From positions 1 through 64,000 of IMG/VR virus record IMGVR_UViG_3300009285_005282: a stretch of 64,000 nucleotides of DNA. One strand, given 5' to 3'. The DNA is from a virus. How positions within the stretch are numbered: the stretch's first letter is position 1; each line of letters starts with the position of its first letter. Shown here one piece after another: positions 6,538 through 23,600 of the stretch. Below the pieces are notes generated by a model, which saw only the letters and a program-made list of their open reading frames with translations, searched no databases and was not told the DNA's origin. The position numbers were made by a program, and so were the translations under genes.

Positions 6538-6549
6538 AGTGCTGTACCT

Positions 6550-6584: not shown

Positions 6585-9500
6585 TCAGCCGAGCTGCCCA
6601 CGGGACTGCCAAAGCTCGGTGACGTAGGCCATGACCGCGCTAGCCTTTTCGGAGCGGGTGTCGAGTCGTACCAGGGCGTCCTGGTTGCGCTGTCGGTCCT
6701 CCGAGGTTACTTGCGCTTCCTGCCCACCCTCCAACCGAGAAGACTCAGTGCTGATGCCGAGGATGCGCCGGACGGGGCGGCCCTCGCTATCGGGGGGCAG
6801 TAGGTTGCGCAGGTTGCGCCCGTTCTCCCCGTTGCCGAAGGCACGGGAGTGGAAGCCCTCAACGCCCTGCGTCTCCCCGGTTTCAGCGTTGATGGTCAAG
6901 TCCCGGGAGCCGAGCATGTCAGTCAGTGTCGCAACCGGGCGCCAGGTGTACGCACGGATGAACTCGTGGATGTCCGCGCCGGCTTGCTGTTTGATGGCGC
7001 TGTAGGAACGAACCAGCAGGTCGATGGCTCGCTCCACGCTGATGTGCATCTCCGCCTCTTGCACTGTTCTGCCGTCCACGCGGATAGGGTCTTGGTTGCC
7101 CTGTACTTGCTGATCCTGGGTAGGGGTGTACGGCGGTGTGCGGATTGCGTTCTCGTCAGACGTGTACGCTCCGGAGGCGGACACGCCTGGAGCGTCCCAG
7201 ACCGGGTTGAAGTCAGGTGTATCCCGTAGCGAAAGGTCACTTAGCCTCGCCTGTACGGCGCGCGCATCCGCAGATGCTGTCCTGGTGTCCCCCAGCCGCG
7301 TGTCGATTACGATTGGGTCGGTGATAGCTCCGATGCCAAAGAATTGCTGGTACACTCCGCCGATCTGGTCGTTGCGCCAGCAGTCCGCCATCCACGGCGG
7401 GCGTACAAAGTCCTCTAGTGGTACGTCAACCACCTCCTGTTGGTAGGACTCCACGTCTTCGGTAACTCGGTAGGCGCGAAACTCTACTTCTTCGGTGGTG
7501 CTGCCAATAAGGGTCACGACCTCGGGTCCGTACGCGTCGGCGCGCTGGCTGGTCCCCACGAGGACGGACATTGTGTACCCGCGTGGACCGCGGCTGTTGA
7601 AGGTGCCATACAGGCGATAGGAGCCCGAGCTTTGCTCCAGTGCTGTGACCTCGGTGATACGCCCGTGGTTAGGTCCCAGCTGTCCTACCAATGGTGGGTC
7701 AGAGGGGAGCGCGGCGACGGTGGTTGACACCGTGGTCGTTCCACCCTGACGGTTGGAGGTGCGTATGCGGTTGGCGCCGAGCAGCTCGTCGTTGTCCCGG
7801 TGGGTCCTTGCAGCGGCGAAAGTGTACGAGGTGCTGGCCGAGTCCTGGGTGACGCTGTGCTGTAACCCCATGACCAGCCCCACGTACTGGACGGGAACGG
7901 TGTGCTTCAGGATGTCCCAGGCGTCCAGGATGCCCCAGTCCTCGCTGAAGGTCAGCTCGTTGTCCGCGTCCCGTGTGACCCCGGGGTAGTTGCTCTGCGC
8001 CGCCTGCTCCAAAAATTCCTCCCCCCGCAGCCCTGATAGCGTCAGCTGCTCCGCGGTCATGGGCCTGTCCACCACTACTGCGGGAAAACCACAGACCGCC
8101 CAGGGGTTGAACTTACCGGAGACGGACATGGAACGGGAGCTCCAGCGGTTCTTGAAGAACTGGTGGTTGGCGGCGCGCATGACGTAGGGAACTCGCGCCC
8201 CACGGTAGTCGGTTTGCTGGCCGTTGACCGCTACCATGTTGACTTCGTTCATGCGCTCAAAGATGGGCACCGGCCCCGTGTAGAGCTCGTGCTCCATGAG
8301 CCGTTGCGCGTACGCCTCCCGGCGTAGCGTGGCCCCTTCAGTGGAGCTCTGCTGTCCTTGGCGTACCCGCGCGCCCAGCACCTCCACGTCCGGCGCGAAG
8401 TAGACGGAGTTAAGCAGCTCGTCGGGGCCGAATATCTCGTCCGACACCGTCAGGCGCATTCTGGAGACCTCGCGGAGGTACATGCGCTGCATCTCGATCT
8501 GGGAGTAGAGCTCAGGGAACAGTATGTTGCAGCGAGGCGGAGCGCACATGAAGATGTCCGGCCGGATGATCTGACTGTACAGCCGTTTGGACACGGTTGT
8601 CTCCGACTCTCGCTCCCGGCTGTCCCGCGACGTGTACGTTCCCCCGTCAAGCGCGGTTAGCGTATCGGTCAACGCCGTCCTTGCTTGCTGGAAATGGCTG
8701 CTGTTGCGTTGGAGTATGTTCGTATACCGTGCTCTAACGTCGGTGTGGTTCGCGCTCTCGAAACGGGCGATAGCTGCTCCCGCCGTGCGCAGCTCCGTTG
8801 CTGCGGTTTGTAGATTTGACAGCGCCGCGGTGAAATCGTACTGGCGGCTGTACGGCTCTAGGGCTGTACGGCTCGCTAAAATGTTTCGGGCCAGGCCCTC
8901 CATCGCCCCCGACAATCCACGGTTGCGTACTTGGCGTGTGGTGGTGCTGAAGTCGACGACGGCCTGCCGTTGCGTGGCAATGTCCCCGGATATCTGGTTG
9001 TACGCCGCGGTGCTCCTGAAGTTGTGGGTGCGTGACACCGCCTCCCGGCGGGTGGTGGAGTAAGAGTCCGGTGCTTGGTACCGCGCTACCGGGCAGGGTA
9101 CCGTGTTGTGGAAAATGAAGCCGTTCAGCAGGTTCAGGATTTCGCGGAAGGACGCGATCTGTCCCAGGCGGCCAGCCGAGTTGCGCGCCCAAACGTTGAA
9201 CGCACGCCGTGGAAAGAGTCGTTGGCTTGACGCGTCATCCTCTGCGGCGCCCAGCATGTCGATAAGGTGATAGCGAAGCTCGGCGATGGTGAAGAAGTCG
9301 TTCACCCCTCGAAAGCCGGCGCGGGTGTACACTCCACCAACACGTTCCAGCAGGTGCACCACCCCGCTTAGCAGACCGGTAAGCTCGGGGTGGGACACTG
9401 AGCGTCGGGTGATCACGTCTACCAGTGTGCTCTCCGGGCTCTGGAAGAAGGTGTCGAACAGCGTGGTGCCCGCGCCGACGAACTGCGCAGTGGTGTTGCC

Positions 9501-10229
9501 ATGCAGGCTGGAGACGTTGACCTGGTACTGGTAGCAGGTGTCCCAGTAGACGCTTAGGTCCAGGCAGCTCAGGATGATTGCTCGCTGCGACGCACTTTTC
9601 ATGAACTGGTAGCCGATGACCTCCCCACAAAAGAACAGCTTCCACTTGTTGTCCTCGACACTGTGGTCCTCAACCGGCCCGGTGCTCGCGCTGGACGTCC
9701 CCACCTCCCCAGGCCCCCCCACTCCCGCCCCCCATCCGGTGATCTGGCCGGTGGTTGTGGGGCCGGCGGCGTGGGTGTCCATGCACGCCGGCAACCCGGT
9801 CAGCTCCGCATCAACCGCGTCATCCTCCGGGAGGGACGTACCACCGGAGGGGGACCAACCGCCGGTGTCACCAGAGGCGCTGAAGTCGGGGGTGTCCCGT
9901 AGCGCGAGGTCGCTCATGCCATCGGTCGCGTCAAAACGTGGGGCCGGGCGTAGGGAGAGGTTGCTCAGGTCGGCTACCTCGTCGGCGGTGCCCACGCGTT
10001 CGCTGGACGATGTGGAGACCCGGATGGTGTCCCCTGGACCGTCGTAGAAGTCTAGGAAGAACAGATGCACCAGCGACCGGGGCAGGAACTGGTGTGCCTT
10101 GTCAGTGGCTGGGATCTGAATCTGGCACTGCGCCGGCGCATCCGGTTGGATGCTTACTGACGCCGAGACTACCGGGACCTCGATCCCCTCGATGAAGCAA
10201 CGGAGCTGTAGATGTTGTGCAACGGCCAT
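6585..10229 (-). CDS. Large virion protein, baseplate hub-like
   Basis: 1214-aa ORF; N-terminal LRCFIEGIEVPVVSASV...LPRSLVHLFF and later VSGKFNPWAVCGFP resemble hub/tail-tip beta architecture. Confidence 0.55.
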   Translation of the reverse strand: MAVAQHLQLRCFIEGIEVPVVSASVSIQPDAPAQCQIQIPATDKAHQFLPRSLVHLFFLDFYDGPGDTIRVSTSSSERVGTADEVADLSNLSLRPAPRFDATDGMSDLALRDTPDFSASGDTGGWSPSGGTSLPEDDAVDAELTGLPACMDTHAAGPTTTGQITGWGAGVGGPGEVGTSSASTGPVEDHSVEDNKWKLFFCGEVIGYQFMKSASQRAIILSCLDLSVYWDTCYQYQVNVSSLHGNTTAQFVGAGTTLFDTFFQSPESTLVDVITRRSVSHPELTGLLSGVVHLLERVGGVYTRAGFRGVNDFFTIAELRYHLIDMLGAAEDDASSQRLFPRRAFNVWARNSAGRLGQIASFREILNLLNGFIFHNTVPCPVARYQAPDSYSTTRREAVSRTHNFRSTAAYNQISGDIATQRQAVVDFSTTTRQVRNRGLSGAMEGLARNILASRTALEPYSRQYDFTAALSNLQTAATELRTAGAAIARFESANHTDVRARYTNILQRNSSHFQQARTALTDTLTALDGGTYTSRDSRERESETTVSKRLYSQIIRPDIFMCAPPRCNILFPELYSQIEMQRMYLREVSRMRLTVSDEIFGPDELLNSVYFAPDVEVLGARVRQGQQSSTEGATLRREAYAQRLMEHELYTGPVPIFERMNEVNMVAVNGQQTDYRGARVPYVMRAANHQFFKNRWSSRSMSVSGKFNPWAVCGFPAVVVDRPMTAEQLTLSGLRGEEFLEQAAQSNYPGVTRDADNELTFSEDWGILDAWDILKHTVPVQYVGLVMGLQHSVTQDSASTSYTFAAARTHRDNDELLGANRIRTSNRQGGTTTVSTTVAALPSDPPLVGQLGPNHGRITEVTALEQSSGSYRLYGTFNSRGPRGYTMSVLVGTSQRADAYGPEVVTLIGSTTEEVEFRAYRVTEDVESYQQEVVDVPLEDFVRPPWMADCWRNDQIGGVYQQFFGIGAITDPIVIDTRLGDTRTASADARAVQARLSDLSLRDTPDFNPVWDAPGVSASGAYTSDENAIRTPPYTPTQDQQVQGNQDPIRVDGRTVQEAEMHISVERAIDLLVRSYSAIKQQAGADIHEFIRAYTWRPVATLTDMLGSRDLTINAETGETQGVEGFHSRAFGNGENGRNLRNLLPPDSEGRPVRRILGISTESSRLEGGQEAQVTSEDRQRNQDALVRLDTRSEKASAVMAYVTELWQSRGQLG

Positions 10230-10253
10230 GCCCCTACCCTACCACAAGTGATG

Positions 10254-10288
10254 ACCAGCTAAGGAATTGCCGCAGGAGTTGCGGCTAG
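10254..10288 (-). repeat. Dispersed hairpin/TTAG element, copy 1
   Basis: CTAAGGAATTGCCGCAGGAGTTGCGGCTAG on +, identical to the cores of copies 2 and 5. Confidence 0.9.
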
Positions 10289-10396
10289 GGAGGGGTGGCG
10301 ACGTAGCGCGCCGTCGCTTGAGTCAGAGGGGCTTGCAGCGTGTAGCGCGGGTCGTCATTGTTGAGAATGTGGGGGCCGGTCTCGGTTCCGTTCGGG

Positions 10397-10744
10397 TCAC
10401 GTACTCGTCAGCGGATTCGGTCGTAGCTCTCCTTCCTGTTCGACGGTTACCCGCAAGGGGCCGTTCTTCCCCCGCAGACGTAGCTCAATACGAACGGTGC
10501 CGGCGGCGTGCATTACTTTTTCTAGCTGCTGCACAAGTACCTCCAACACCCGCGTGTCTGCCGTGACATCAACGTCGGAGTTGACGTTCTCGGTCGCCCA
10601 GCGGGCGTATCTGTCCACGGTGCACGGGAGTCGTTCCAGCTCACGACTCTCGATCCACGAGGCTACCCCGAGCGCCCAGCGCCCGATCAGTCCCAACAGC
10701 CAGTCCAACATGCGTTCCTCCACCAGGAATTGTTGCAGAAGCAC
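10397..10744 (-). CDS. Hypothetical protein
   Basis: Co-oriented ORF; possible start at MLDWLL after GGAGGA. Confidence 0.6.
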   Translation of the reverse strand: MLLQQFLVEERMLDWLLGLIGRWALGVASWIESRELERLPCTVDRYARWATENVNSDVDVTADTRVLEVLVQQLEKVMHAAGTVRIELRLRGKNGPLRVTVEQEGELRPNPLTST

Positions 10745-10795
10745 GTCAAGGGAGAAAGGTGGGGCGGCCGGCCGCTAGCGAAAACGGGTGTTTTG

Positions 10796-11395
10796 TCAGT
10801 TCACTTCGCCCGGCCACTCCGGGATCTCTGAGCGGAGATCTTTTGCCTGCCGGACCCGTTCCTCCTCTAGCGCCACAGCCTCCTCTGCCGCCGTCGCTGT
10901 TGACCGTATCGCGTTTACTGCTATCGCCCACTCTGCTGCCCTCGCCGCTCGCGCCGCGTCCGACGCCCACACTGCGGCCATCGTCGCCCACGTCGCTGAC
11001 CGCATCGCACTTCCTACTGTCTCCCACGCCGCTGCCTTTGTCGCTTGCGTCGCTATCGCTGCCTCCGCTGCTTGCGCTGACCGGTCGTCGCCGGTAAGCC
11101 ACCGTACGGCCCACTCCCACCAGTCAACGGCCCAGGGGGCGTCGTTCCCCTCCAGCGATTTCATCACGTGCCGGATGACGCGCTCGACGACTTTGTCGGT
11201 GGCCCGCAGCAGTGCGGGCATCACTGCTCGCAGTTCAGCGGCCGACAGCCCGTACCGGAGCTGCCAGCCCATCCAGTCGCCGCGCTGACAGAGCTTCCAG
11301 GCGTCGGCTTGGGTGGCGTCTGGACCGAGCGATTTTCGCCATTTCAACGCCTCAGGACACGAACTGTGGGCCAGGCCCCATTCGTAAGCGTTCAT
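10796..11395 (-). CDS. Ala/Trp-rich paralogue family protein, copy D
   Basis: MNAYEWGLAHSSCPEALKWRKSLGP...CQRGDWMGWQLR...RQAKDLRSEIPEWPGEVN. Confidence 0.88.
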   Translation of the reverse strand: MNAYEWGLAHSSCPEALKWRKSLGPDATQADAWKLCQRGDWMGWQLRYGLSAAELRAVMPALLRATDKVVERVIRHVMKSLEGNDAPWAVDWWEWAVRWLTGDDRSAQAAEAAIATQATKAAAWETVGSAMRSATWATMAAVWASDAARAARAAEWAIAVNAIRSTATAAEEAVALEEERVRQAKDLRSEIPEWPGEVN

Positions 11396-11483
11396 TGGAG
11401 CCTCCGGAGCAGCCGCCAGATCAGGCGGGCGAGCCGGGCTGTCAGTCGGTCCCACAGTGGGGGGCTTACGCATCCGGGGTGTG

Positions 11484-11750
11484 TCATCGCCAACTCTGTA
11501 TCCTACGGAGAAGGATGTCTAACTGGGATTCGGGGGGCGCGGCGTGCACCCCTGCCTCCAAGTAGTGGTGTAGGCAGCGTGGGCAGAGTGCCCACCATCC
11601 CCAGGCGTCGTACTCGTACCCCGGTGGGGGTACGTTGAACTCATACCCTGTCGGCTCTGCGCATACCGCGCAACTCTTATGTTGCCTGGCCGGTCGGCGC
11701 ATAGTGCACAGTTCTCTGGTCTCTCTGGTTCTTCCCTGTACGCTCAGCAT
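11484..11750 (-). CDS. CxxC...CxxC hypothetical protein
   Basis: CAVC...CPRC; AAGGAG RBS; TATAAG at 11791-11796. Confidence 0.7.
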   Translation of the reverse strand: MLSVQGRTRETRELCTMRRPARQHKSCAVCAEPTGYEFNVPPPGYEYDAWGWWALCPRCLHHYLEAGVHAAPPESQLDILLRRIQSWR

Positions 11751-11842
11751 CGTTTTCTCCTTCCCACTGTAACCCATACAGTGTGAATACCTTATAACGA
11801 AAACTACAGTTGTAGCTTTGAGAGAGGTTGCTGGCCGGTACG

Positions 11843-11884
11843 CCCAACTAATTCCCAACTAATTCCCAACTAATACCCAACTAA
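11843..11884. repeat. 4x 11-bp tandem repeat (CCCAACTAA core)
   Basis: Cores at 11843, 11854, 11865 and 11876; equals the tail of the dispersed element. Confidence 0.9.
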
Positions 11885-11889
11885 AAGCA

Positions 11890-11951
11890 GGTGCTCTACG
11901 TTCACCCGCAACTCACCAGATCGGCGAGCCGCGGGGTGAACATAGAGCACC
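11890..11951 (-). terminator. Long (~28 bp) imperfect hairpin
   Basis: GGTGCTCTATGTTCACCC..GGGTGAACGTAGAGCACC on -; mismatches are G-U on the - strand; followed by TGCTTTTAG. Confidence 0.7.
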
Positions 11952-12097
11952 GTGCCTTTATCTCAGTGCCCAGCCGCACCTCCATGCGGCCCGGACAGCT
12001 CGATAGGCGCGTGCCAGCCGGCCACGCGCCCCAAGGACGTACTCCAGCTCTCGGGCCAAGAGGCCCGGGGCGACCAGCTCCAGTCTCTCGACGGGGC

Positions 12098-13918
12098 TCA
12101 TGTGCCCCTCCCTTCTGCAGCGTGGACCCGCTGCACGTAAGCTCTCAGCACTCGGCAGAGGGCCGGGTGCGGATCAGTGTTCTCTGGGCCACGGTGCTGT
12201 CGCACCAGCCCGTTTCTCGACAACTCGGCGGTGGACCTGACCCCCTTTCGGGGGAGGCGCAGCGACAGGACGACCGACTGGCCGCCCTCCACCGCGCTGG
12301 CGTAGCCGCCGACGCAGTGAGACATCTCCCGCCCCTCCCGCGCCAGCTCCGCGGGGGTGGCCAGGTGTCTCATCACCCGGCGGTATGGGCGGGGCCACTG
12401 CCCTGGGAGTTGGGCGAGGACGCGGTGGTCCTTTCGCGCCTTCTCCTCCCAGTCGGTGGCGAGGCGCCGCGCCGCGGCCTCAAACGCCTCGTCGGGGCGG
12501 GTGGCCACCCCACGGACGAGGTCGGCGTCTTGGATCTCGTCCAGGCGGTCCATAAACCGCCAGACGATCTCTTCGCCCGCGGGGGCGTGGAGGACGCGCT
12601 CCCGCAGAAACGCGCCGTACCCGCCACGACGCTCTACGTCCGCGACCCAACGGACGAGGAGCACGGACCGGAGGCGCGGGAGGTCCTCCAGTCCGGCCAG
12701 CAGATCACGCTGGAGCCACTCCACCAGGTCGGTCCCGCCAGCGAGGAGCCAGCGATGGGCCTCGGCGGCGGACAGCTCGCTACCGCTGACCTGACGGGGG
12801 GACTCCCCGAGGGCCAGTCGGCGAGCCGTATCCAGGGGTACCGTGGGGTAAGCGGGACAGATCATCCCGATTACTCCCTGGACCTGCTGTCTCCCATCCC
12901 AGAGGGTCGTTTCGACCCCCTGGCTCTCGGCGACCTGGGCGGTCCGAGCGCCCTGGTATACCCAGCCGTTCTGGGCCGTCCTCAGGGACAGCGCCAGCCG
13001 GAGTCGCCCACTCCGGTCCTCTGCCAGTCCGCGGAGCAGCGGCCGGGCCGCCTCGACCGCGGGGGCCAGGTCCCGCGCGCGGATCAGCGGGGCGCGGACC
13101 CAGTGCCCGTCCGTCCACCCCCCCGTGTCCTCCCACCCCTTGGGTAGGTGGGAGAGCACTGCCGCCTGCCCCTCGGGGCAGAGCTCCCCGAGGAGGCGGA
13201 GAGCCCCGAGGTCGAGCCGCTCAGCTCGGCCCCCGCCGAGGCTTGCTCGGTTCGCTGCCCGGGCCGCCAACGTGAGTTGGCGTCGGCGTCGGCGGGAGAG
13301 GGACTCCCACCGTGGGAAAAGCACACCCGGGCGGGGGGCGTCCGGCCCGGTGTGCTCCCGCCAGTCCGACCCCCGGCGGACTCCCGCTCGTACCACCATG
13401 GCAGGCCACCCCGCCTGCCAGGCTCCCGCAACCCACTCCGGTTGCGGGTTGTGGCACGACCCGACCGCCGCGGGTCGGGTGGCCACTTGCGCCCAGTAGG
13501 CGAGGAAGTCCGTGAAGACTCTCGCCCACTGGGCCGGGGAGAACCGGTTCCAGCCGGCTGCGACCAGCCGGCCGTCCTCCGGCCACCCTTCCGCCGGGCC
13601 GACGTAGTCCTTCGGCGAGCACACGCCGAAGGTGTTTGGGTGGCGTCGCCGACACGCGGCGACGTAGAGCCCCGCTGTGTCATACCGCGGGGGGCCGGAG
13701 CGCTTGGCCGGCCGCGTGAGAGCCAGCGCGGCCCTCACGGTCCACTCGCCCTCGCGTGGCCCCCACGCCGCGAGCTCGATGTCGCGCTCGGTGGTGGTGG
13801 TGGTGGTGGTGGTGGTGGTGGTGGTGGTGTTGATGCTGGCGAGTCGGCGCGCTGCGCCGCGCCAGCCCTGCACCACCACTGCTGTTACGACCAATTCTGC
13901 TATTGTGGCCCGCAACAT
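12098..13918 (-). CDS. PcfJ-like domain protein
   Basis: C-terminal ELAREGREMSHCVGGY...SVVLSLR...STAEL...QHRGPEN; AAGGAGG RBS; TATAAG at 13970. Confidence 0.8.
   Translation of the reverse strand: MLRATIAELVVTAVVVQGWRGAARRLASINTTTTTTTTTTTTTERDIELAAWGPREGEWTVRAALALTRPAKRSGPPRYDTAGLYVAACRRRHPNTFGVCSPKDYVGPAEGWPEDGRLVAAGWNRFSPAQWARVFTDFLAYWAQVATRPAAVGSCHNPQPEWVAGAWQAGWPAMVVRAGVRRGSDWREHTGPDAPRPGVLFPRWESLSRRRRRQLTLAARAANRASLGGGRAERLDLGALRLLGELCPEGQAAVLSHLPKGWEDTGGWTDGHWVRAPLIRARDLAPAVEAARPLLRGLAEDRSGRLRLALSLRTAQNGWVYQGARTAQVAESQGVETTLWDGRQQVQGVIGMICPAYPTVPLDTARRLALGESPRQVSGSELSAAEAHRWLLAGGTDLVEWLQRDLLAGLEDLPRLRSVLLVRWVADVERRGGYGAFLRERVLHAPAGEEIVWRFMDRLDEIQDADLVRGVATRPDEAFEAAARRLATDWEEKARKDHRVLAQLPGQWPRPYRRVMRHLATPAELAREGREMSHCVGGYASAVEGGQSVVLSLRLPRKGVRSTAELSRNGLVRQHRGPENTDPHPALCRVLRAYVQRVHAAEGRGT
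13790..13828. repeat. (GGT)13 trinucleotide repeat encoding Thr13
   Basis: Perfect repeat read directly from the sequence. Confidence 0.95.
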
Positions 13919-14054
13919 CGGGCCTCCTTTCTGCCGGCGTGGCTGCCGGCTTGCTTGTGTCTCTGTTTTCTTATAACGCGGACTTCTACGCGTTCGGCTA
14001 AGTCATGGTGGGGCCACATTCTGCTGGGGTAGTGTCCTTACAACGCAGATTTTG

Positions 14055-14093
14055 TACTTGGCTAAAACGAGGACCAGCTCACGCTGGGTCCTC
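14055..14093 (-). terminator. Hairpin + TTTTAGCCAAGTA element
   Basis: GAGGACCCAGC-GTGA-GCTGGTCCTC followed by GTTTTAGCCAAGTA on -. Confidence 0.7.
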
Positions 14094-14170
14094 GCGGGAA
14101 TGTCGGAACGGAGCCGAACCGCCCAGTCATCCTCCTATGGTCTCCCGCCCCGGGGTGGCGGCCTACCGCC

Positions 14171-14416
14171 TCACGGCACCTCCTTTCTCGTTCGATCCTG
14201 GAACGGCTCCCGCCGCCAGGAGTTCAGGCCGGAGCAGCATCCTTTTCCGATGTCGAGGGCACGCGCTGTCCTGGAGCCTCTTTCCAGGACCAGTCGGCAC
14301 CAGTGCCGACTGTCCCTCCAGACGAGCCCTCCGCACGGTGCGTCAGTCCCGTACGTCACCGCGCCGTAGTAGCAGGGCACTTTGGCGCAGCAGAATCCGC
14401 AGCCGGTGCACTCCAT
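14171..14416 (-). CDS. CxxCxxCC (YkgJ-like) Cys-rich protein
   Basis: MECTGCGFCC...PC...WC...GKGCC. Confidence 0.75.
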   Translation of the reverse strand: MECTGCGFCCAKVPCYYGAVTYGTDAPCGGLVWRDSRHWCRLVLERGSRTARALDIGKGCCSGLNSWRREPFQDRTRKEVP

Positions 14417-14461
14417 GTTGGTAGCGTTCCTTTCTGTACCGAGACTTTGTGGAAACTGGTC

Positions 14462-14785
14462 CTACCGCAGACGACAGAGCAGGCCGACCTCCCACTCGTC
14501 GTCCCGGATGGCGAGCTCTCCCTTGAGGTGGGGGTCGTCCACTCGGAAGCGGAGCCGGACGACAGCTGCTTCGTCACCTGGCTTCATGGGGGAGGGGTCC
14601 CTGGAGATGGGGCAGTGTACCCCCGTCATCTCCAGGATCTTTAGTTGGTTGCCGGTGTACCCGACGCACGAGCGGAAGCGGTCGGCGTGCAGCCACGCGC
14701 TGAGCTCCCCCCACGTCAGCCGGTCGTAGGTGTACGTGCCGAACCCTCCGGCCGGGATCACGGCGCTGTTGACGACCCATCTCAT
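14462..14785 (-). CDS. DUF1874 / AcrIII-1 (YddF, STIV B116)-like protein, His-to-Tyr variant
   Basis: VVNSAVI...G.Y...LT..E...SCVGY...G...SR...MKPGDEAAVVRLRFR...LLCRL parallels the family pattern LNS..G.Y..S.IGH..NR..M..GDEA..L..R; GGAGG RBS; TATAAG at 14804. Confidence 0.7.
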   Translation of the reverse strand: MRWVVNSAVIPAGGFGTYTYDRLTWGELSAWLHADRFRSCVGYTGNQLKILEMTGVHCPISRDPSPMKPGDEAAVVRLRFRVDDPHLKGELAIRDDEWEVGLLCRLR

Positions 14786-14804
14786 GGTTTCCTCCGTGCT
14801 TTTC

Positions 14805-15980
14805 TTATAACGGCGGCGCGGCGCGCCATACCCGCTGTAGCTCGTCGGCGTAACTGGCAACTCCGCATGTGGACAGCCGGTACGCTAGCTCTTTCAGGTA
14901 GGCCCCGGTCAGCCCGTCTGTGCCCCCAAGCAGCTCTTGGTGAGTGCGCTCGTCCACGTGGACGTCGAATTTTGCGTAGTAGTAGCGCAGGATAGCGGAG
15001 CGGGTCGTTTCGTCGGGAGCGTGGAGCTGCACCACTTCGTCAACCCGTCCGGGGCGCATTCCTTCGATGTAGTAGCATCCAGGCTTCTCAGGTACTGCTG
15101 GGGTCATGTACGTGAGGATGATCGTACGTCCTGGAGCGTGTAGGAGCTCAAGAATGTCCAAGAGCTGCGCGCCCACGCCACGGTGTAGTTGTTGCACGTC
15201 ATCCAACAGCAAGATCGTTGGGTCGGCGAGGTTGACCAGTGCTGTGAGGTACTCGGTTGAGCACTGCTGCAACACCCGGCCTGAGATCCGTAGGATGTGC
15301 GCGGACGGCGCTAGATGCTGTGCTACCGCCTGCGCCAGAAGGGTCTTGCCGACGCCGGACGGCCCACGAATCAGTAGGGTGCGCCCGCTGGTGCTGCGAA
15401 GCCGTCTTGCCAACTCTGCGGCGTCATCGTTTGGTCCAGACACGTAGCACTCCGGTGGTGCTAGCGGGCCTATAGAAAGTTTCGTGTGGTCAGTCGGTGC
15501 CCCCGATTGGTCGTTTCCTTCCAACAAGTTCACCCTGAGCCACCTCCAGAATAGGGGCCGTGTGGCTTTTGGTAGCCGCGCAATATCCTGCGGTCGTGTG
15601 CAGAGCACGGCGTTGCGAGCGTACTGTACTACGCCGATTTCACATTGTGGAAGCCGATACACCAGTACCTTGGTGGAGTTGTCGTCGGTAGTCAGTGTGG
15701 TGTGCGGCACCGTTGAGTTGTTGAGCAGAGTGATTATCATGTCGCCCTCCACGCAGAAGTAGCGAAGCATGCCACATCGGGCTATCAGCGTGTCGGGGTC
15801 GTTAGTGGCGAGGGCCAGTTCACATACGCTGCCGGCGACCGCCCCCGCGGCCAGCACCTTGGTGATGACCCCTCCACCGCGGGCCGTTCGCAGCGTGTTC
15901 AGCACCTCCCGCGCGGTCGACAGCCCTCGGCGCCATAGCGGCAGGTACGCCTCCTTTAGCATGTATGCAGGGAGGTTCAT
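14805..15980 (-). CDS. AAA+ ATPase
   Basis: Walker A GPSGVGKT, Walker B ILLLDD, arginine finger MRPGRVD. Confidence 0.9.
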   Translation of the reverse strand: MNLPAYMLKEAYLPLWRRGLSTAREVLNTLRTARGGGVITKVLAAGAVAGSVCELALATNDPDTLIARCGMLRYFCVEGDMIITLLNNSTVPHTTLTTDDNSTKVLVYRLPQCEIGVVQYARNAVLCTRPQDIARLPKATRPLFWRWLRVNLLEGNDQSGAPTDHTKLSIGPLAPPECYVSGPNDDAAELARRLRSTSGRTLLIRGPSGVGKTLLAQAVAQHLAPSAHILRISGRVLQQCSTEYLTALVNLADPTILLLDDVQQLHRGVGAQLLDILELLHAPGRTIILTYMTPAVPEKPGCYYIEGMRPGRVDEVVQLHAPDETTRSAILRYYYAKFDVHVDERTHQELLGGTDGLTGAYLKELAYRLSTCGVASYADELQRVWRAAPPL

Positions 15981-16831
15981 AGGTCGAATGGCAGAGCATT
16001 GCACTGGAACCCCGCAGCTCCAGCGTGCCCGCCGCCTCTGTGGGCTTTTGCGATCGCCGCGCAGTCGAAGCCGCGGTCGCTGTAGAGCGACACCTCCCAC
16101 TTCCGAACGTCGCCTCTCCAGAGGAATGGGACCATGGCGACGCAGTCTGGGTGTGCGGCCCAGATCTCGTCGAAGCGTTCACTACCCTTGTAGGTGTTGA
16201 GCGCCAGCACTTGGTGTCCGTCCAGCGTCGTCTCGAAGGCGAAGGGGGTCAGTTCGGCGTACTGCTGACGTGCAAACCGCAAGACAACGTTTCCGTGTTC
16301 GATGAGCGTTTGCAGTACCACTGGGGATTCGCAGCTCCACAGGAGCTGTTGCCAGCACTCGTGGGCGACCCCAGGGTTCAGGGCGCGCATGCCGTACTGG
16401 AACTCCTTGATGCGCTCACTGTGGATGTCGTTCACCCACGCTCGGGTGTCCCACCGACCGAGCCATTGGACGGCGAGAGGTTGTTGGGCCGTTAGGTTGA
16501 AGTAGTCCCAACACAGCTCGCAGGCTGCTTGCCCGACCTTGCGCACTCCAGCTATGGTGCTCCCCGCCCACCTCTCCATGGCGGTCTTGTGGTGGTCGAT
16601 CCAGACTAGGTTCGGGACGGTGTCGATCAATCGTTGCATGTCCTGATCGGGAAAGGAGAGGTCTACCAGAAAGACCTTGTTCGCGGCGCCGATTCGATCC
16701 CACGGGATGGGGTCGCCGTGGGTCCACCCGAGAAGTTCCGTGTGAGGTTCGTAGCGCAGTTCGTAGTGCAGCACGATGGCAGCGCTACACACCCCGTCCA
16801 GGTCCGCTCGATGATAGATGCACAGGTTCAA
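15977..16831 (-). CDS. DHH/DHHA1 phosphoesterase (NrnB-like)
   Basis: YHRADLDG, VDLSF, WIDHHKTA, GGGHAGAAGF; TTG start after AAGGAGG. Confidence 0.92.
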   Translation of the reverse strand: MNLCIYHRADLDGVCSAAIVLHYELRYEPHTELLGWTHGDPIPWDRIGAANKVFLVDLSFPDQDMQRLIDTVPNLVWIDHHKTAMERWAGSTIAGVRKVGQAACELCWDYFNLTAQQPLAVQWLGRWDTRAWVNDIHSERIKEFQYGMRALNPGVAHECWQQLLWSCESPVVLQTLIEHGNVVLRFARQQYAELTPFAFETTLDGHQVLALNTYKGSERFDEIWAAHPDCVAMVPFLWRGDVRKWEVSLYSDRGFDCAAIAKAHRGGGHAGAAGFQCNALPFDL

Positions 16832-16903
16832 CGCGTCCTCCTTTGTTAGGTGCTTACCGCACCTTTTAGTAAACGACTGGTCACTTATACCATAGCGGCG
16901 TGA

Positions 16904-16936
16904 TACCTGGCTAAAAGGAAGGTAGCTGTAGCTACC
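16904..16936 (-). terminator. Hairpin + TTTTAGCCAGGTA element
   Basis: GGTAGC-TACA-GCTACC TTCCTTTTAGCCAGGTA on -, followed by TATAAG at 16884. Confidence 0.75.
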
Positions 16937-17173
16937 GACCCTCGACCTACTCCAACCGGTCTTTTTTGGAGTGCGCCCTGGCCTTGTGATTTGTGCTTTG
17001 GCGATCCGGCTCCAACCGGTCCACCTAGCACTCCTCATTCAGCGGGGCGTTGCCCTGCCGCTACCCGGGCGTGGGGTAGCGTGTCCCTCTACAGGGGACG
17101 TCGAACAGGGACTTTCTCTGTGGGGGCACAGCCTACGCTGTCGCGCCTCCCCCACTACGCCGGGGCCTCCTGG

Positions 17174-18031
17174 TTACCGAGGCCCGACGACCGCCCTCTG
17201 GACAAGCTGGAGCGCCTGCTCCAGCCCTACCTTCTCGCGGCTGGCGGTCTTGACAATGAAGCCGCCCGGGTGGGCAAAACTTACATCGTCTCGACCAGCC
17301 AGCCTGGAGAAGTCCAGGCGGCTGTCGTCGTCGTAGCGGTAGAGGGTCCAGCCCGGCCCTCGGTTGTCGTAGACAATCGAGAAGGCCGTGCCGGGAGCGA
17401 ACCTCTCCCGCCACGTCTCGGTCCCGGTGACGTCCTCGCTACGCAGAACGTAGCCAGGGACACCACCGGCCTCAACCATCAGGCACTCGTTGCAGAGGGC
17501 CTTCACCCGCTGCAGCTGCCCGATAGCCGAGTCCAGGAGGGACACCCCCAGGGAGGCCAGCAGCTGGCCCAGGACTTCATCGCCCTGGGCCTCCGTCTGC
17601 TGGCCAAACCCGTCGACCAGGACCTCCTGCACCGGCGACAGGAGCTGGAATACCACCTCGGGGGTGGTTCCCAGCTCTTTCGCCAGGGCGAAAGGCCCCT
17701 TGGAGTCGATAACCTTCAGCGTACGGAACCATTTCTGGTCCGTGAACGCCTCCAGTACCGACTCCCCCCGCCAGCTCATCCCTTCGACGAGAAGGCTCAG
17801 CGCACACGCTGGCTCCGCGTCTCGGGGAAGCTGGTGGTGGTCGAAGTTCGAGCGGGCGGGCTCATGCCTGCCACCCACGTCGAACACGACCACCCGGGGG
17901 TCGTCGAGCTCTTCCCGGGAGGGTTCCCGACGGAGGACGACGTCCACCTGCGCCTGTGCGAAAAGCACCGCGGCACAGAGGAAGTCGTCCAGGTGCGCGT
18001 CACCCGCGTGGGTGACGCCGATCCGCCTCAT
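17174..18031 (-). CDS. MYG1-family (UPF0160) metal-dependent hydrolase/exonuclease
   Basis: VTHAGDAHLDD, DVGG.H.P...FDHHQ, FAHPGGF; GGAGG RBS. Confidence 0.85.
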   Translation of the reverse strand: MRRIGVTHAGDAHLDDFLCAAVLFAQAQVDVVLRREPSREELDDPRVVVFDVGGRHEPARSNFDHHQLPRDAEPACALSLLVEGMSWRGESVLEAFTDQKWFRTLKVIDSKGPFALAKELGTTPEVVFQLLSPVQEVLVDGFGQQTEAQGDEVLGQLLASLGVSLLDSAIGQLQRVKALCNECLMVEAGGVPGYVLRSEDVTGTETWRERFAPGTAFSIVYDNRGPGWTLYRYDDDSRLDFSRLAGRDDVSFAHPGGFIVKTASREKVGLEQALQLVQRAVVGPR

Positions 18032-18130
18032 GGAACCTCCACTTAGACGAGGAGACCGCCGCGTCTCCCCACGTCTGCACCAATGCAGAGTCGGGAGTGG
18101 AGGTCGCAACGGTCTCCTTAGTCTTTATTC

Positions 18131-18826
18131 TTATACCACATACAGCCACTTCGCTCGCGCCTTCCGTCTTGCAACGACCATCTCATCGCGGTAGCACCAA
18201 CACCGCACGAGCTCGGTGTAGGAGTATGGCCTTTCCAGCCAGCGCCTGCTCGCGAGGTAAATCCCCGGGTGGCACGCGGTTGTGGTATCCACCGAAAACA
18301 CAGGGGCATTGTACCATCCCCACACGTACTCGTGCCCTTTGATGTACTGACTTTTGGCCGTTCTCCACCCCCTCACTACCTCACGTCCACCTTCTACATC
18401 CAGCTCCAACCCCAGCGTTGTGATCTCTTCGTCGGAGCAGTACGGTATTCTGGCTTTGGGGTCGAGTACGGTACAAGTGAGATTGGCGTGATGGAGAACA
18501 GTGCCACAGAGATCCGCGTTGTAGAGATCGGCGTAGCGAAGATCGGCGTAGCGAAGATCAGCGTAGCGAAGATCGGCGTAGCGAAGATCAGCGTAGCGAA
18601 GATCCACATAGCGGAGATCGGCGTAGCGGAGATCCGCATAGCAGAGATTGGCGTTATGGAGGTCGGCGTGGTGGAGACGGGCGTGGTGGAGATCGACGTG
18701 GCGGAGATTGGCGTGGTGGAGATCGGCGGTGGAAAGATCGACGTAGCGGAGATTACTGTTACTGAGGTTGGCGTGGTGGAAATCACGTTTTCCTGCCTGA
18801 TACCTGGGAAGTAGCATATCTATCAC
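18131..18826 (-). CDS. Pentapeptide-repeat protein (paralogue of 1345-1974)
   Basis: (ADLRY)n repeats; same C-terminal domain; AAGGAGG RBS. Confidence 0.9.
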   Translation of the reverse strand: MIDMLLPRYQAGKRDFHHANLSNSNLRYVDLSTADLHHANLRHVDLHHARLHHADLHNANLCYADLRYADLRYVDLRYADLRYADLRYADLRYADLRYADLYNADLCGTVLHHANLTCTVLDPKARIPYCSDEEITTLGLELDVEGGREVVRGWRTAKSQYIKGHEYVWGWYNAPVFSVDTTTACHPGIYLASRRWLERPYSYTELVRCWCYRDEMVVARRKARAKWLYVV

Positions 18827-18828
18827 GT

Positions 18829-18931
18829 AAACCTCCTTTGGTTGGTTATGGACTTATACCAGATATTGAGCACGTCGTACCCAACTAAGGAATTGCCGCA
18901 GGAGTTGCGGCTAGGTGGGCGGGGTAGCGGG
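18829..18931 (-). repeat. Hairpin/TTAG + TATAAG + RBS module, copy 2
   Basis: 18829-18899 matches 20111-20181 with 8 substitutions in 71 bp by manual alignment. Confidence 0.9.
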
Positions 18932-19102
18932 TTCGTCGTCGCGGGCATCCAGGCCGGCACGGATACCGGCCCGGAGCGCCTCTTGGCGGGTTTCCTCCAG
19001 CGTTCTTTCCGCGAGAGTTAACAGCGTCCAGGAGACCCGGGTCACGGCGACCGCCGTGGCCCAGCTCCCCATCAACCCGCCTACCAGGATCAACGTTAGC
19101 AT
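18911..19102 (-). CDS. Small membrane protein
   Basis: Hydrophobic N-terminus; GGAGG RBS; TAG stop lies inside the repeat element. Confidence 0.7.
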   Translation of the reverse strand: MLTLILVGGLMGSWATAVAVTRVSWTLLTLAERTLEETRQEALRAGIRAGLDARDDEPATPPT

Positions 19103-19151
19103 TGGAACCTCCAAGAGTCTTATCCCCTTATGGAGGTCCCTTCTTGCACTA

Positions 19152-19610
19152 TTAGGGGGCGGGACTCGGTGGCGTTCCCTCAGGCCCCCATCCCCAGCTC
19201 TTTTGGACTACGGCCGCGACGGTTTTCGCAAGCTCGTGGTCCGCAATGGACGGGTGTCCCGTCCACCAACCGCGCGTGTCCCGCACAGTGATTTGCCACG
19301 GCCCCTCCCCGTGGAGCCAGACCCCTAAGGGCAGCGTGGCGGTCTCGTTCAGGACCGTCGGGTCGACGACTGGGCTGAACTTGAGAAGCAGTGCCGTGCT
19401 GAGGTCAGTGATGACCGACTCCTGCGGTTCGAGCATTGCCGTGAACACTTCCATTTGGTGCTGCAGGGTCGACAGCACGGTGTACCAAAACGCCGCCTCC
19501 TTCGCGTGCGCGTGTGCAAGTGCGTCTCCCAGACGTGCGTGTAGCGTCTGGGAGACAACCACCCAGTCATCTTGCAAGGTTTTTTGCAGCTCAGTACCTC
19601 TTTCGTCCAT
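19152..19610 (-). CDS. Hypothetical protein
   Basis: MDERGTELQ...; TAATG overlap with upstream gene. Confidence 0.7.
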   Translation of the reverse strand: MDERGTELQKTLQDDWVVVSQTLHARLGDALAHAHAKEAAFWYTVLSTLQHQMEVFTAMLEPQESVITDLSTALLLKFSPVVDPTVLNETATLPLGVWLHGEGPWQITVRDTRGWWTGHPSIADHELAKTVAAVVQKSWGWGPEGTPPSPAP

Positions 19611-20032
19611 TACCGCACCCATACCGGCGAGTTGCCGGGAAAGTCGAGGCGAGTGTCCACCACCACCACCACCTCGTAGTTCCACCAACAGCCTTCCTCT
19701 TCCAGCCGGAGAACCTCCCGCTTCGCCGCCTCCCCGACGAACAGCCGGTCGGCGGACAGCATGAGGTAGTCCCGCGTTCCCTCGTTTACCCCATCGGAGA
19801 TCTTGACGTCCATCCCTTGCGCGAGCAGGTAGCAGGGGTAGACGAGCATGTTGAGCACGGTCAGCCACCCCTTCTTGGGGGCACCGTGCAGGGCGGTGTG
19901 CTGCAACCCCCATCCTTGCCACTTCCATGCGTGGAGCACGCATTGTAGCACCAGCTCCCACGTGCGGGAGAAGTCGTTGTCCCCGAAGTTTACGAGGAGC
20001 ACCAGCTCGGTCTCAGCTTTCGGTTCGGTCAT
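19610..20032 (-). CDS. Hypothetical protein
   Basis: MTEPKAE...VNFGDNDFS; co-oriented and tightly packed. Confidence 0.7.
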   Translation of the reverse strand: MTEPKAETELVLLVNFGDNDFSRTWELVLQCVLHAWKWQGWGLQHTALHGAPKKGWLTVLNMLVYPCYLLAQGMDVKISDGVNEGTRDYLMLSADRLFVGEAAKREVLRLEEEGCWWNYEVVVVVDTRLDFPGNSPVWVR

Positions 20033-20110
20033 TGGACCCTGCCTTCTCCTCCTCAAGTACCTTCATAAGTGACTCGTCGGTCCCGGGAATGTGCAACAGG
20101 TGTTTCAATG

Positions 20111-20216
20111 AAACCTCCTTTGGTTGGTTATGGCCTTATACCAGATATCGAGTGTGTCATACCCGGCTAAGGAATTGCCGCGAGAAAGAGCGCGGCTAGG
20201 TGGGTGGAGCGGCGGG
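20111..20216 (-). repeat. Hairpin/TTAG + TATAAG + RBS module, copy 3
   Basis: TACCCGGCTAAGGAATTGCCGCG-AGAAAGAG-CGCGGCTAG on +; stem kept while the loop differs. Confidence 0.9.
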
Positions 20217-20224
20217 TCTCGACA

Positions 20225-20488
20225 TTACTTGGCGCCGGGCTTGGGGACCAGGGCGCTGCTCGTTTCGGCACGCGCCGTTTCCAGCCCCAGCGCGGCCTCA
20301 GCCCGTCGGGCATCGGCACGCGCCGTTTCCAGGGCCACCGCCGCCGCTAGCGCGGCGGCCATGAGCGCGCCCAGCTGCTGCAGCGTCTGGAGCGCTGCCA
20401 GCCCCACTTCCCGGTCGGCTTCGACCCGCCGGAGACAGACGGCCTCCGACAGCTGGACACCCCAGTGCTTTTCCGCCTCTTCTGACAT
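20225..20488 (-). CDS. Ala-rich coiled-coil hypothetical protein
   Basis: AAGGAG RBS; TATAAG at 20510. Confidence 0.7.
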   Translation of the reverse strand: MSEEAEKHWGVQLSEAVCLRRVEADREVGLAALQTLQQLGALMAAALAAAVALETARADARRAEAALGLETARAETSSALVPKPGAK

Positions 20489-20635
20489 GGTAGAACTCCT
20501 TTCATTACCCTTATATCTGAACCGCCTGAGCTATTTGCAGTTTGTGATCCTCCGTTTGCGCCGTATAGGCTGGAATCGTGATATTCTCGTTGTCGGAGGT
20601 GCCCCCTGCCTATCCCCAGTCATCAGATCACGGCT

Positions 20636-23600
20636 ATGGCGATGCAGCAACAAGCGCTCTTCGCCAACGCTGCCAATTACGCTCTTTCCATTACCCCGCC
20701 AATGGGAGGGATGGCCCCTTACGGTCCGCGTTACACGGCGGGGGCACCTCCGACGATGGTCCCACCCCCGATGATGCCGACTTCAGGCATGGGGCAGTCC
20801 GGCGGGTTGGGCAGCATGGCCATGGGTGCCATGTTCAACACCCCCGGGGGTTACATGGCGCAGGGTATGGGAGAGCAGGTGGCGAGCTCGCTCATCGGGG
20901 GTGCGCAGTCCCTCACCGGCGGTGTTGCCGCCGCTGCGAGTACGATCACCGGAGTCGCTGGAATAGCCAGTCTGTTAGGCGGAGCTGCGCTACCTGTGGT
21001 CGGAGGAGCCGTTGGTGTGCTGGGGGGCCTGCCGGCAATGACCGTTGCTGGCGGTCTGGGTATGGGAGCCTGGGGGGTTGGTCAAGCAGCTACGGGTATG
21101 GACCAACGTCAACAGCTCGCCCGGGTGATGCGCTCGCGGTTTGGGGGCATGATGGGCGCGGGTGGCGGCAACGGCGGTGTCGGGTTCAGCGCCACGGACA
21201 TCGGGGGCATGTCCACCATGGTCCGGGAGATGGCCGGCTCCGACATGTTCACCTCGTTTGAAGAGCTCACGCGAGTGCTGGACCGGACCGGACAGGGAGG
21301 GCTGTATCGGGGTGTCCAGAACGCCCGGCAGTTCCGTGAACGGTTTCGTCAGACCGTCGACACGCTGCGCGAGATTGCCCAGACCATGCACACCTCGCTG
21401 GAGGGGGCGACACAATTCTTGGAGGGGCAGCGCGCCCAAGGTTTCTTCACGGGGAGGGAGATTACCTCTTCGATGATGCAGACGCGGCTACAGGCCGGAG
21501 CGTCAGGAATCTCGGCTGCGCAGATGCAGCAGATCGGTCTGCAGGGCACCCAGATGGGCCGCATGATGGGCATGCGTGGTCGGTCCGGCTCAGCGGCGAT
21601 GCGCGCCATGGCTACGTCGTTGGGGGTGCAAATGCAGACCGGGATGCTCAGCGACGAGATGGTCGCGGAGGCTACCGGCGGGGCTACTGGCGCTGAGGGG
21701 GCACAGATCCTGGCGGCGCAGCAGATGCAGGTCGCACAGCGCTTCTTCGGCGGGAGGCGCGCAGGACGGGTGGTGCTGGCGGGGCTGTGGGACCCGGAGA
21801 CCGGCGGCATCAACGAGGATCGGCTGCGCGAGGCGATGTCGGGCAACATGACCTTTCACCAAGCGCGGAGTCGGGGAAGGGAAAACGTTCGGCGGACTGG
21901 TGGGCGCAACAGCGAGTTCTTTCTGGACCAGAACCGCATCCTGGGCGAGCTCATGGAGACCGGGCAGGGGGTCAACCTGGAGATCGCCATGTTGGAGCAG
22001 CACTACGGTCATCGTGGGTGGACACTGGACGATCCTGCCATGCAGCGGGTCATGCAGCGTCACCTTGGGGTTGGTCGGGAAGAGGTGGACGTGCTTATCC
22101 AGCAGTACCGGAACGCCCCCCAGGCAGCGACGGAGCAGCGTCTCCGTATGAACCAGCAGCTCAACCAAGAAGCGCGGGTCCGCTCCCGTGAAGTGTCCGG
22201 TGTGGAGGGCTTCCGACGACGGTTCTCCAATATGTTGGAGCGCACCATCACCAACCCCTTGCGACAGGCGGGGGATGACCTGACCACGTCTATCGCGCGC
22301 ACCGTGGAGGAGACGGTCCGGGAGATCGAGGGGCGAGTAGAGTTCCAGGCAACCGAGGAGGGACGTCGGGCTTACAGCGCGCTGGCCAGAGGAGAGGGTA
22401 CGGAGGGGCAGAAAGCGAGTCTTCGCTCCGGTCAGCGCCTTCTGGCTGGGGCCACGGTACGAAGTATGTACCAATCGCGTGACCCGTCACTGCTTCGACG
22501 ATTTGGTTCCTGGTCCGGTTTTGGGGCGCAGTCCACCTCCGAGATGCTTACCGCGTCCGGGTTTGGAGCGCCGGGTATGACCGCCCAGGCGGCGCAGGAG
22601 CAACTCTCCCAGATCACCTCCGGGATTACGCGTGGGTACGCTACCACCCACACTGACTTGGGAATGAGTGAAAAGCAGTTTGGGGCCATGCAAGGACAGA
22701 TGGCAGACTTTATCACTTCACGACAACTGACCAACGTGCCCAGTACGTGGGATCGACTTCGCGGTCGAAGTAACGACCTGGCGGTAGCTCGGGAGCGGGT
22801 GCGGCAGCTGGATGAAGCTAACGTTGGTGGGATTTCGCGTGTTTGGGCCAAGCGTGGCGAGGCGGAGAAGATCGGCATGTTGGAGCGGTTCACCGGTGAG
22901 CGTTTCGCCGGTACCGGCTACGAGACCAACGTTGGGGGTGCCGGTCTCAGCCGAGAGGCTACCTTGCGGGGGTTGGAGCGTTTGCACGAGGAGCAGGCGG
23001 AAGGCATGCGCATTCTTGGTAATAGTTTCAATACTCGGAACGGCCGACCTCTTTCGTATGAGATGATGCGCGGTAACATCCATGGGCCGGGGCAGCTCCC
23101 GGACGAGGGTGCGAGCAACACCTTTGAATTTCAGTCGTTGTTCCGCGCCACCGGGGAGTCATCGGAGCTGACGCGGCATCTGCGCGCCGCGTTGGGGGGC
23201 ACGGGGGAAGACATTCGTCAAAACGACGCGCTTACTTCGTTGCGGCTGCTCGCCTCTAACGGGCGCGGCACGGGGGTATTTCAGGGTGTAGACCTGGACC
23301 GTAGCGCCCGCGGCGCCCTGAAGGGGCTGGTACACGGCAGTCCGCGGCAAAAGGACGTGGCTTTGGGCTTGCTTGACCGGCAGACCAGCATAGCGATGGC
23401 TACCGAATTGGTGCAGCGCGGGGAGATGTACACGGGGGTCTGGGAGCGAATCAACCGGAGCAGCGAGAGCTTCAAACAGGATGTGCAGCACAGCTCTCGC
23501 CACCTGCTGGACTCCTACCTGCGTAAGCGCAGTGCCGGCGACCCCGGTGGGGCTGCGGAGGCGGCGCTGTTTGCGCATCTCACCGACCCGGCCAACGCGA

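Follow-up and report, generated by a model that had tools for sequence, protein, structure and literature searches.

The gene at positions 14462 to 14785 (stop codon included) on the minus strand of a 64,000-nucleotide stretch of viral DNA (IMG/VR virus record IMGVR_UViG_3300009285_005282, positions 1 to 64,000; hereafter the window) encodes a 107-residue protein of the DUF1874 family with the fold of AcrIII-1, in which the position of the catalytic histidine is occupied by tyrosine (Tyr43). Judged from the aligned relatives, this replacement is a trait of a large and distinct clade and not of an individual variant, and Tyr43 co-varies with a lysine (Lys88) of the lid loop. The Tyr/Lys branch of the AcrIII-1 fold is apparently undescribed; full-text searches of open papers, without their supplements, turned up no account of a DUF1874 clade of the Tyr type. 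We tentatively regard the product, with somewhat less than even confidence, as a phage anti-signalling protein that binds a cyclic oligoadenylate (cOA) and cleaves it by Tyr/Lys chemistry, cleavage being slightly favoured over sequestration.

The translated gene runs from an ATG at 14785 to a stop codon at 14464–14462, and the longest mechanical open reading frame (ORF) opens at a TTG at 14860. The ATG was favoured over the TTG because a Shine-Dalgarno sequence, GGAGG (14791 to 14795, minus strand), lies 5 nt upstream of it and because the same methionine starts the six closest homologues (40–56% identity by BLASTP, 39–58% in the alignment). The G+C content at third codon positions (GC3) was 0.84 in this frame, which is typical for the coding frames of this sequence (62–67% G+C). 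Tyr43 is encoded by the TAC codon at 14657 to 14659 and Lys88 by the AAG codon at 14522 to 14524, both on the minus strand. Promoter-like and terminator-like signals counted between 11500 and 20500 showed no excess over shuffled sequence.

A preliminary description of this gene, made from the DNA letters, had placed its product in a YddF/B116-like (DUF1874) family, and this placement was borne out by Pfam, by profile searches of the PDB, and by structural comparison. The sole Pfam match of the protein was PF08960.15 (STIV_B116-like, formerly DUF1874), with an E value of 5e-5; its score of 23.8 bits falls slightly short of the curated cut-off of 26 bits. PF08960.17 is the precomputed domain recorded for the window protein in the protein collection, and PF08960 matched 91 of 93 clade members at E ≤ 1e-3, with a best value of 3.1e-20. 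Against the PDB, the window protein alone matched only AFV3-109 (E = 0.02). The profile of 93 relatives matched AFV3-109 (3.5e-19), the Crn2 domain of Marinitoga Csx1-Crn2 (5e-12), STIV B116 (9e-8), and SIRV1 gp29, which is AcrIII-1 (1.5e-6 for 2x4i and 3e-5 for 6scf). The name YddF used in the earlier description belongs to the His-type branch; NCBI applies it to the Cas10-adjacent His-type proteins.

The AlphaFold2 model built on the 93-relative alignment had a mean predicted local distance difference test (pLDDT) score of 93.6. In a Foldseek search of the PDB with this model, all 16 matches with E ≤ 0.001 were DUF1874 structures (AcrIII-1, Crn2, B116, and AFV3-109), with template modelling (TM) scores of 0.72–0.81, and they included the complex of AcrIII-1 with cyclic tetra-adenylate (cA4), 6scf; the next match, outside DUF1874, had an E value of 0.25. 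The protein was predicted to form a homodimer, with an ipSAE interface score of 0.71 against 0.00 for the best control, a run-to-run contact agreement of 100%, and a partner pLDDT of at least 83. In calibration with solved structures, 20 of 30 homo-pairs and 1 of 23 single chains attained the ipSAE mark. The predicted interface comprises residues 7–22, 77–80, 99, 101, and 103. The dimer prediction points to likeness to the solved DUF1874 dimers, and the model's memory of those dimers may be its source.

Other collections yielded little. No NCBIfam model matched the window protein at E ≤ 10, and among the 93 clade members the sole NCBIfam match at E ≤ 0.01 was that of one acylphosphatase model to one member. 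PHROGs returned only phrog_5063, of unknown function (E = 0.017), and tblastn of the window protein returned only Acidianus rod-shaped virus 1 (ARV1), at 24% identity. Megablast of positions 6000–26000 of the window against cultured phages gave no match.

In every printed alignment, G42-Y43 of the window protein aligned on the G-H of AFV3-109, B116, and Csx1-Crn2, and Y43 aligned on the alanine of the Csx1-Crn2 H495A mutant (8y7g). The match to gp29 (2x4i) was ungapped, with profile positions 20–83 lying on chain residues 25–88, and the window protein has a two-residue insertion before this stretch; therefore, residue n of the window protein corresponds to residue n+4 of gp29. By this rule, Y43 corresponds to the catalytic H47 (H495 in Csx1-Crn2), position 46 to T50, R62 to R66, R77 to Q81, and R81 to R85. 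These alignments agree with what had been noticed from the sequence: GY stands where the family has GH, and the downstream arginines are present, in S61-R62 and L78-R79-F80-R81. In the AcrIII-1 report, H47 is termed absolutely conserved, and the side chains contacting cA4 are those of N8, S11, N13, S49, T50, R66, Q81, and R85 (10.1101/778746). The S49 equivalent, position 45, is glycine in the window protein.

To estimate the extent of the Tyr-type clade, a profile search was performed against 1.84 billion cluster representatives (50% identity), in which 920 proteins matched at E ≤ 1e-3, among them 320 with E ≤ 1e-10. Conservation was tallied on the best 150 of the 920 and seven sequences from BLASTP, aligned to the profile, 155 in all. 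Position 43 was Tyr in 149 of these sequences, His in two, Phe in two, Leu in one, and a gap in one. The positions kept in at least 85% of the sequences were N6, S7, A8, G16, Y18, Y20, S39, G42, T46, G55, R62, G70, D71, V75, R77, L78, R81, and E99. Among the equivalents of the cA4-contact residues, R62 was kept in 148/155, R81 in 147/155, and T46 in 133/155; the NS(A) and G-x-x-x-T motifs of AcrIII-1 were also kept. Lys88 was present in 145/155 sequences with the broader profile and in 130/155 with the first alignment.

His-type relatives were examined for comparison. When prokaryotes were scanned with one genome for each species, 24 loci were obtained, whose translations carried G-Y in 21 cases, G-H in two (Tepidimonas sediminis and Tepidicella xavieri), and G-N in one. 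A search for the Cas10 palm domain covered 23 of the 24 genomes, the 651-bp contig L012 being left out. A match on the same contig was found only for the two G-H genes, at a distance of approximately 6 kb, and for none of 20 Tyr-type genes (0/20), many of whose contigs are short. The Tepidimonas G-H protein is named "YddF family protein" by NCBI. Another G-H homologue, the third, is carried by a Vibrio aerogenes plasmid and lies inside an annotated type III-B CRISPR locus, by cas1, cas2, and cas10/cmr2. All three His-type relatives examined were located approximately 3–6 kb from cas10.

The two residues changed together across the family. Among 63 relatives of the Tepidimonas protein, position 43 was His in 63/63, and column 88 was Leu, Val, or a gap, with Lys in 0/63. 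The lid loop reads R-L-P-E-G in this His set versus R-V-x-D-P-x-x-K-G in the Tyr set. When both sets were pooled, 141 sequences combined Tyr with Lys, 64 combined His with Leu, Val, or a gap, and one combined His with Lys. A FastTree phylogeny was computed with columns 43 and 88 masked from 207 of 218 sequences, the 11 with fewer than 80 filled columns being dropped. On this tree, 55 His rows formed one group (support 96), and the window protein fell in an all-Tyr group of 43 (support 98). Only two Tyr/His changes were required. The second of these concerned P0030, which has His and keeps Lys88 and was the sister of the Tyr-bearing P0061 (76% identity, support 99). With few columns for many rows, the deep forks of this tree are mostly unresolved.

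In the mechanism that we tentatively favour, the homodimer would bind a cOA, either cA4 or one closely related to it, at the interface of its subunits, where the ligand would be held by the retained constellation of Asn6, Arg62, Arg77, and Arg81. The Tyr/Lys pair would replace the histidine, with Lys88 sitting in a lid loop that would close over the ligand, and the ring would be cut to linear products with a 2′,3′-cyclic phosphate. The signal would be removed from the infected cell, and the protein would thereby counter a defence that relies on type III CRISPR or on another form of cOA signalling. Cleavage is favoured because selection on the site for two ionisable residues is very strong, because Tyr and His interchange between the near-identical sisters P0030 and P0061, and because Tyr and Lys serve other metal-independent RNA-cleaving enzymes, such as Cas6 and the tRNA-splicing endonuclease, which leave 2′,3′-cyclic phosphates.

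Several points weigh against this reading. Position 46, equivalent to T50, is Asn in the window protein, as it is in 14 of the 155 clade sequences. The N8 equivalent, N6, lies outside the aligned range of 2x4i, and the correspondence comes only via the LNS motif in the alignments with AFV3-109 and Csx1-Crn2. The counterpart of Lys88 in gp29 is either E88 or L92, as the loop lengths differ. In the papers searched, no activity, binding, or in-vivo test of any Tyr-type member was found, and the presence of a type III CRISPR system in the host is an assumption. DUF1874 proteins can also have other roles, as in the case of SIRV2 gp37, for which binding and inhibition of a lysine methyltransferase of the host are also reported (10.1101/2023.01.10.523387). 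Finally, the H47A variant of AcrIII-1 lost activity more than 2500-fold yet still bound cA4 and was crystallised with it (10.1101/778746); a residue other than His is therefore equally compatible with a protein that binds without cutting.

This last point leads to a second reading, in which the protein would be a natural sponge that binds cA4 or another cyclic oligonucleotide tightly in a pocket of the AcrIII-1 type and sequesters it stoichiometrically, in the manner of Tad1, Tad2, and Acb2 with other signals, Tyr43 and Lys88 adding affinity and not catalysis. The absence of the general-acid histidine, the behaviour of H47A, and the retention of the binding arginines are all consistent with it, and an additional lysine in the lid loop would be expected to favour phosphate binding. 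Phage sponges are an established and abundant class of counter-defence proteins, and such a role has been raised for the ring-nuclease-like Csx15 (10.1101/2024.09.24.614671). Nevertheless, a binder would have less need of a near-invariant ionisable pair at the position of the scissile phosphate, and the sisters P0030 and P0061, which differ in Tyr versus His at this site, are easier to explain if both residues share a job. We consider sequestration somewhat unlikely on this balance. Altered chemistry or specificity and a non-cleaving sponge, the two possibilities raised in the preliminary description, remain the two leading readings.

The label Csx16 was also considered. The PADLOC model of that name, PDLC01147, matched the window protein (E = 5.5e-7, 28.3 bits) and 89 of 93 clade members. 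Ring-nuclease activity of Csx16 on cA4 is confirmed (10.1101/2024.09.24.614671, PMC12409355), and Csx16 is said to be partly similar to DUF1874 (PMC8284326). These matches would fit an ordinary Csx16 or Crn2 ring nuclease in which the tyrosine is without consequence. However, PDLC01147 scored far higher on the two His-type, Cas10-adjacent YddF proteins (127.6 bits) than on the 20 Tyr-type genes (41.7–69.6 bits) or the G-N gene (23.0 bits), and it also gave a match in the Bacillus subtilis control. PF09652 (Cas_VVA1548), which we take to be the Csx16 family, matched neither on the contig of the window nor on the His-type genes. The association of Csx16 with type III CRISPR-cas was not seen for the window gene, which has a phage location, or, on contigs many of which are short, for the 20 Tyr-type genes searched for a Cas10 palm match, the locus L024 near a Card1 gene and an array being described below. 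Together with the separation of the Tyr clade from the His clade on the tree and the lack of an NCBIfam match for the window protein, these results make an ordinary Csx16 or Crn2 enzyme very improbable. The identification of the Tyr clade with Csx16 was rejected, since PDLC01147 prefers His-type YddF proteins and PF09652 is silent; the two were set apart by these models and not by published Csx16 residues. The "Csx16" label of PDLC01147 may lead to Crn2- or AcrIII-1-like genes being reported as Csx16.

Compared with the solved AcrIII-1 proteins (SIRV1 gp29, 2X4I/6SCF; STIV B116, 2J85; AFV3-109, 2J6B), the window protein has the same fold (Foldseek TM 0.72–0.78, probability 1.00), the same Pfam family region, a viral location, a predicted homodimeric state, and a similar size (the solved proteins have 109–122 residues), and R66 and R85 are kept as Arg62 and Arg81. 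It differs in that the general-acid His47 is replaced by Tyr43, and its residues are only 12–20% identical to those of the solved proteins. The Crn2/YddF proteins (Marinitoga Csx1-Crn2, 8Y6Z/8Y7F/8Y7G, and those of Tepidimonas, Tepidicella, and Vibrio aerogenes) are homologous to the Tyr-type proteins over the full length, with 34–38% identity, and both groups share N6, S39, G42, T46, R62, D71, R77, R81, and E99. They differ from the Tyr-type proteins in their invariant His, in the lack of a column-88 Lys and the possession of an RLPEG-type lid loop where the Tyr clade has an R-V-x-D-P-x-x-K-G loop with a near-invariant Lys, and in the proximity of the three examined genes to cas10. As between viral AcrIII-1 and cellular Crn2, the window gene is outside a CRISPR locus, on a virus contig whose genes include those of phage replication, an RNA polymerase, and a terminase-like protein. 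Tad1, Tad2, and Acb2 are phage cyclic-nucleotide sponges with folds unrelated to DUF1874. The window protein may share their mode of action, that of a small phage protein removing a defence signal, and no sequence or structural match to them turned up in any search with it.

AcrIII-1 is the reference type III anti-CRISPR, and a clade with hundreds of sequence clusters has Tyr in place of its "absolutely conserved" His and has gained a co-varying Lys. The clade is found in the phages and prophages of bacteria and archaea from many phyla. If the Tyr-type proteins cleave, the fold supports a second way to cut cyclic oligoadenylates; if they are sponges, viruses may have converted a nuclease into a sponge repeatedly. 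Either outcome would alter the counting of viral counter-defence genes, because surveys based on hidden Markov models would label the Tyr-type genes as ring nucleases without checking the active site. The Tyr/Lys and His types would also provide a compact natural pair for dissecting ring-nuclease chemistry.

The genomic surroundings of the clade were analysed at 21 cellular Tyr-type loci and on 17 viral contigs. The recurring neighbours were phage integrases, a primase-polymerase A fusion, terminase, Dam methylase, an SNF2 helicase, and YqaJ recombinase. Because these are phage-type genes, the clade is considered to be phage- and prophage-borne. No widely shared neighbour emerged from an all-against-all BLAST of the ORFs at 42 loci, where integrases were shared by five loci, PcfJ-like proteins by four including the window, and Dam-like methylases by four. 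A search of 50,697 records of cultured phages with the Tyr-type member P0007 returned no match, so the clade is easy to miss. An exception to the phage-type surroundings was found at L024, where the Tyr-type gene lies 4–8 kb from a CRISPR-like array of 21 repeats and a gene for a Card1 CARF nuclease, with transposase genes between.

Some Tyr-type proteins occur as fused forms. P0031 carries a ribbon-helix-helix domain, which was the sole Pfam name obtained for ten fused forms scanned. An unknown domain of about 95 residues was common to 7 of 33 extended Tyr-type forms (P0053, P0059, P0063, P0072, P0083, P0140, and P0154); it was N-terminal in five of them and C-terminal in two, and it had no Pfam match in the three forms scanned (P0059, P0063, and P0154).

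These surroundings and fusions bear on a further reading, namely that the fold now serves a purpose that has nothing to do with cyclic nucleotides, such as binding to DNA or to a protein of the host or phage in the replication or early-gene region, or sensing a ligand when fused to regulators. The inhibition of a host methyltransferase by SIRV2 gp37 sets a precedent, the ARV1 homologue is annotated as a "DNA binding protein" in one record, the Tyr-type genes lie among replication and recombination genes, fused forms exist, and a Cas10 palm match was on the contig of none of the 20 Tyr-type genes. On the other hand, the polar residues that are best conserved in the clade are those at the cA4-contact positions of AcrIII-1, the L024 gene is close to a CRISPR array and Card1, and absence from CRISPR loci is expected for a viral counter-defence gene. 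We therefore regard such a re-use as unlikely.

The window lies within a single contig of 119,736 bp from a large phage of high G+C content, a virus record with an estimated completeness of 68%, and the identical protein is recorded on four contigs, the longest of which has 155,710 bp. Among the products encoded on the contig are DNA polymerase A, a DnaB-like helicase, a RecA-like protein, an intein-bearing terminase-like protein, and a 2912-residue fused RNA polymerase beta-beta′ with an intein. A simple scan of the contig revealed no array-like repeats. The Tyr-type gene belongs to a co-directional string on the minus strand, in the order pentapeptide-repeat, MYG1-like, DHH/DHHA1, AAA+, Tyr-type, Cys-rich ORF, and PcfJ-like. 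The string is headed by the pentapeptide-repeat gene (18131 to 18826, minus strand; Pfam E = 3.6e-29), and pentapeptide-repeat proteins can mimic DNA. The MYG1-like gene (UPF0160, DHH superfamily; 17174 to 18109, minus strand) matched PF03690 at 3.5e-10 over the N-terminal 63 residues only. The gene for the DHH/DHHA1-family phosphoesterase (15977 to 17038, minus strand) scored 27.2 bits against the Pfam DHH cut-off of 28.1 and 23.0 bits against the DHHA1 cut-off of 25.9, and its product had no sequence match in the PDB at E ≤ 0.01. It is followed by the AAA+ ATPase gene (14805 to 15980, minus strand), in which Pfam and PDB matches placed a Cdc48/VCP-like module at residues 229–415 of the longest ORF. 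The likely ATG of the AAA+ gene at 15980 overlaps the DHH stop codon as ATGA, and its own stop codon precedes the Tyr-type gene by 19 nt.

Downstream of the Tyr-type gene by 45 nt is an ORF of 81 residues, 12 of them Cys (14171 to 14416, minus strand), with a GC3 of 0.79 and no family match. The PcfJ-like gene (12098 to 13918, minus strand; PF14284, E = 3.3e-10) encodes 606 residues with a run of 13 Thr near the N-terminus. Relatives of it were found within approximately 2 kb or less of the Tyr-type gene on three other viral contigs (L052, L059, and L061). None of the other neighbours in the window was found beside Tyr-type genes elsewhere, and the AAA+ and DHH genes of the window were shared with none of the other loci in the all-against-all BLAST.

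The two DHH-superfamily genes stand in tandem (15977 to 18109, minus strand) directly upstream of the AAA+ and Tyr-type genes. They may have a role as a phage nanoRNase or cyclic-nucleotide phosphodiesterase. A more far-reaching proposal would make the Tyr/Lys clade a second independent catalytic solution in the AcrIII-1 fold, with a Lys-activated Tyr in place of His and possibly with changed substrates, namely cyclic tri-adenylate (cA3), cyclic hexa-adenylate (cA6), or signals of the type used by cyclic oligonucleotide-based antiphage signalling systems (CBASS), with or without cA4. In this phage, the Tyr-type protein might then perform the first degradation step, and the linear products might be finished by the DHH/DHHA1 and MYG1-like phosphoesterases. 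A Sulfolobus DHH-DHHA1 nuclease is mentioned as degrading cOA (PMC8284326). We judge the proposal as a whole to be quite unlikely.

Some minor observations were made in the course of the analysis. The DUF1874 RNA motif, an attC-like repeat between integron-like cassettes (PMC5737381), was set aside as not relevant to this locus. In the Tyr-type gene of an Acidobacteria metagenome-assembled genome (MAG), at L009 663–986, an in-frame TAG is located three codons before G-Y, which could reflect a pseudogene, a sequencing error, or recoding. The gene for the fused RNA polymerase of the phage (L002 24–8759, plus strand; positions 82024–90762 of the contig, outside the window) contains a LAGLIDADG intein and also matches peptidase M23 weakly, and further intein-bearing genes were observed at L002 15727–18822 (the terminase-like gene) and L003 4911–8033. 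Fused RNA polymerases were also encountered on two MAG contigs, L024 (1–19452) and L021 (1–6052), which share a conserved triad of genes for a JAB-like protein, a Tyr-type DUF1874 protein, and a 2138-residue RNA polymerase beta-beta′ fusion, with 66–82% identity between the two contigs. The L024 element and the window phage are not close kin, because their fused RNA polymerases are only 23–31% identical. The L024 triad also adjoins a ThiF-like gene and a gene for a sigma-54-type AAA+ protein.

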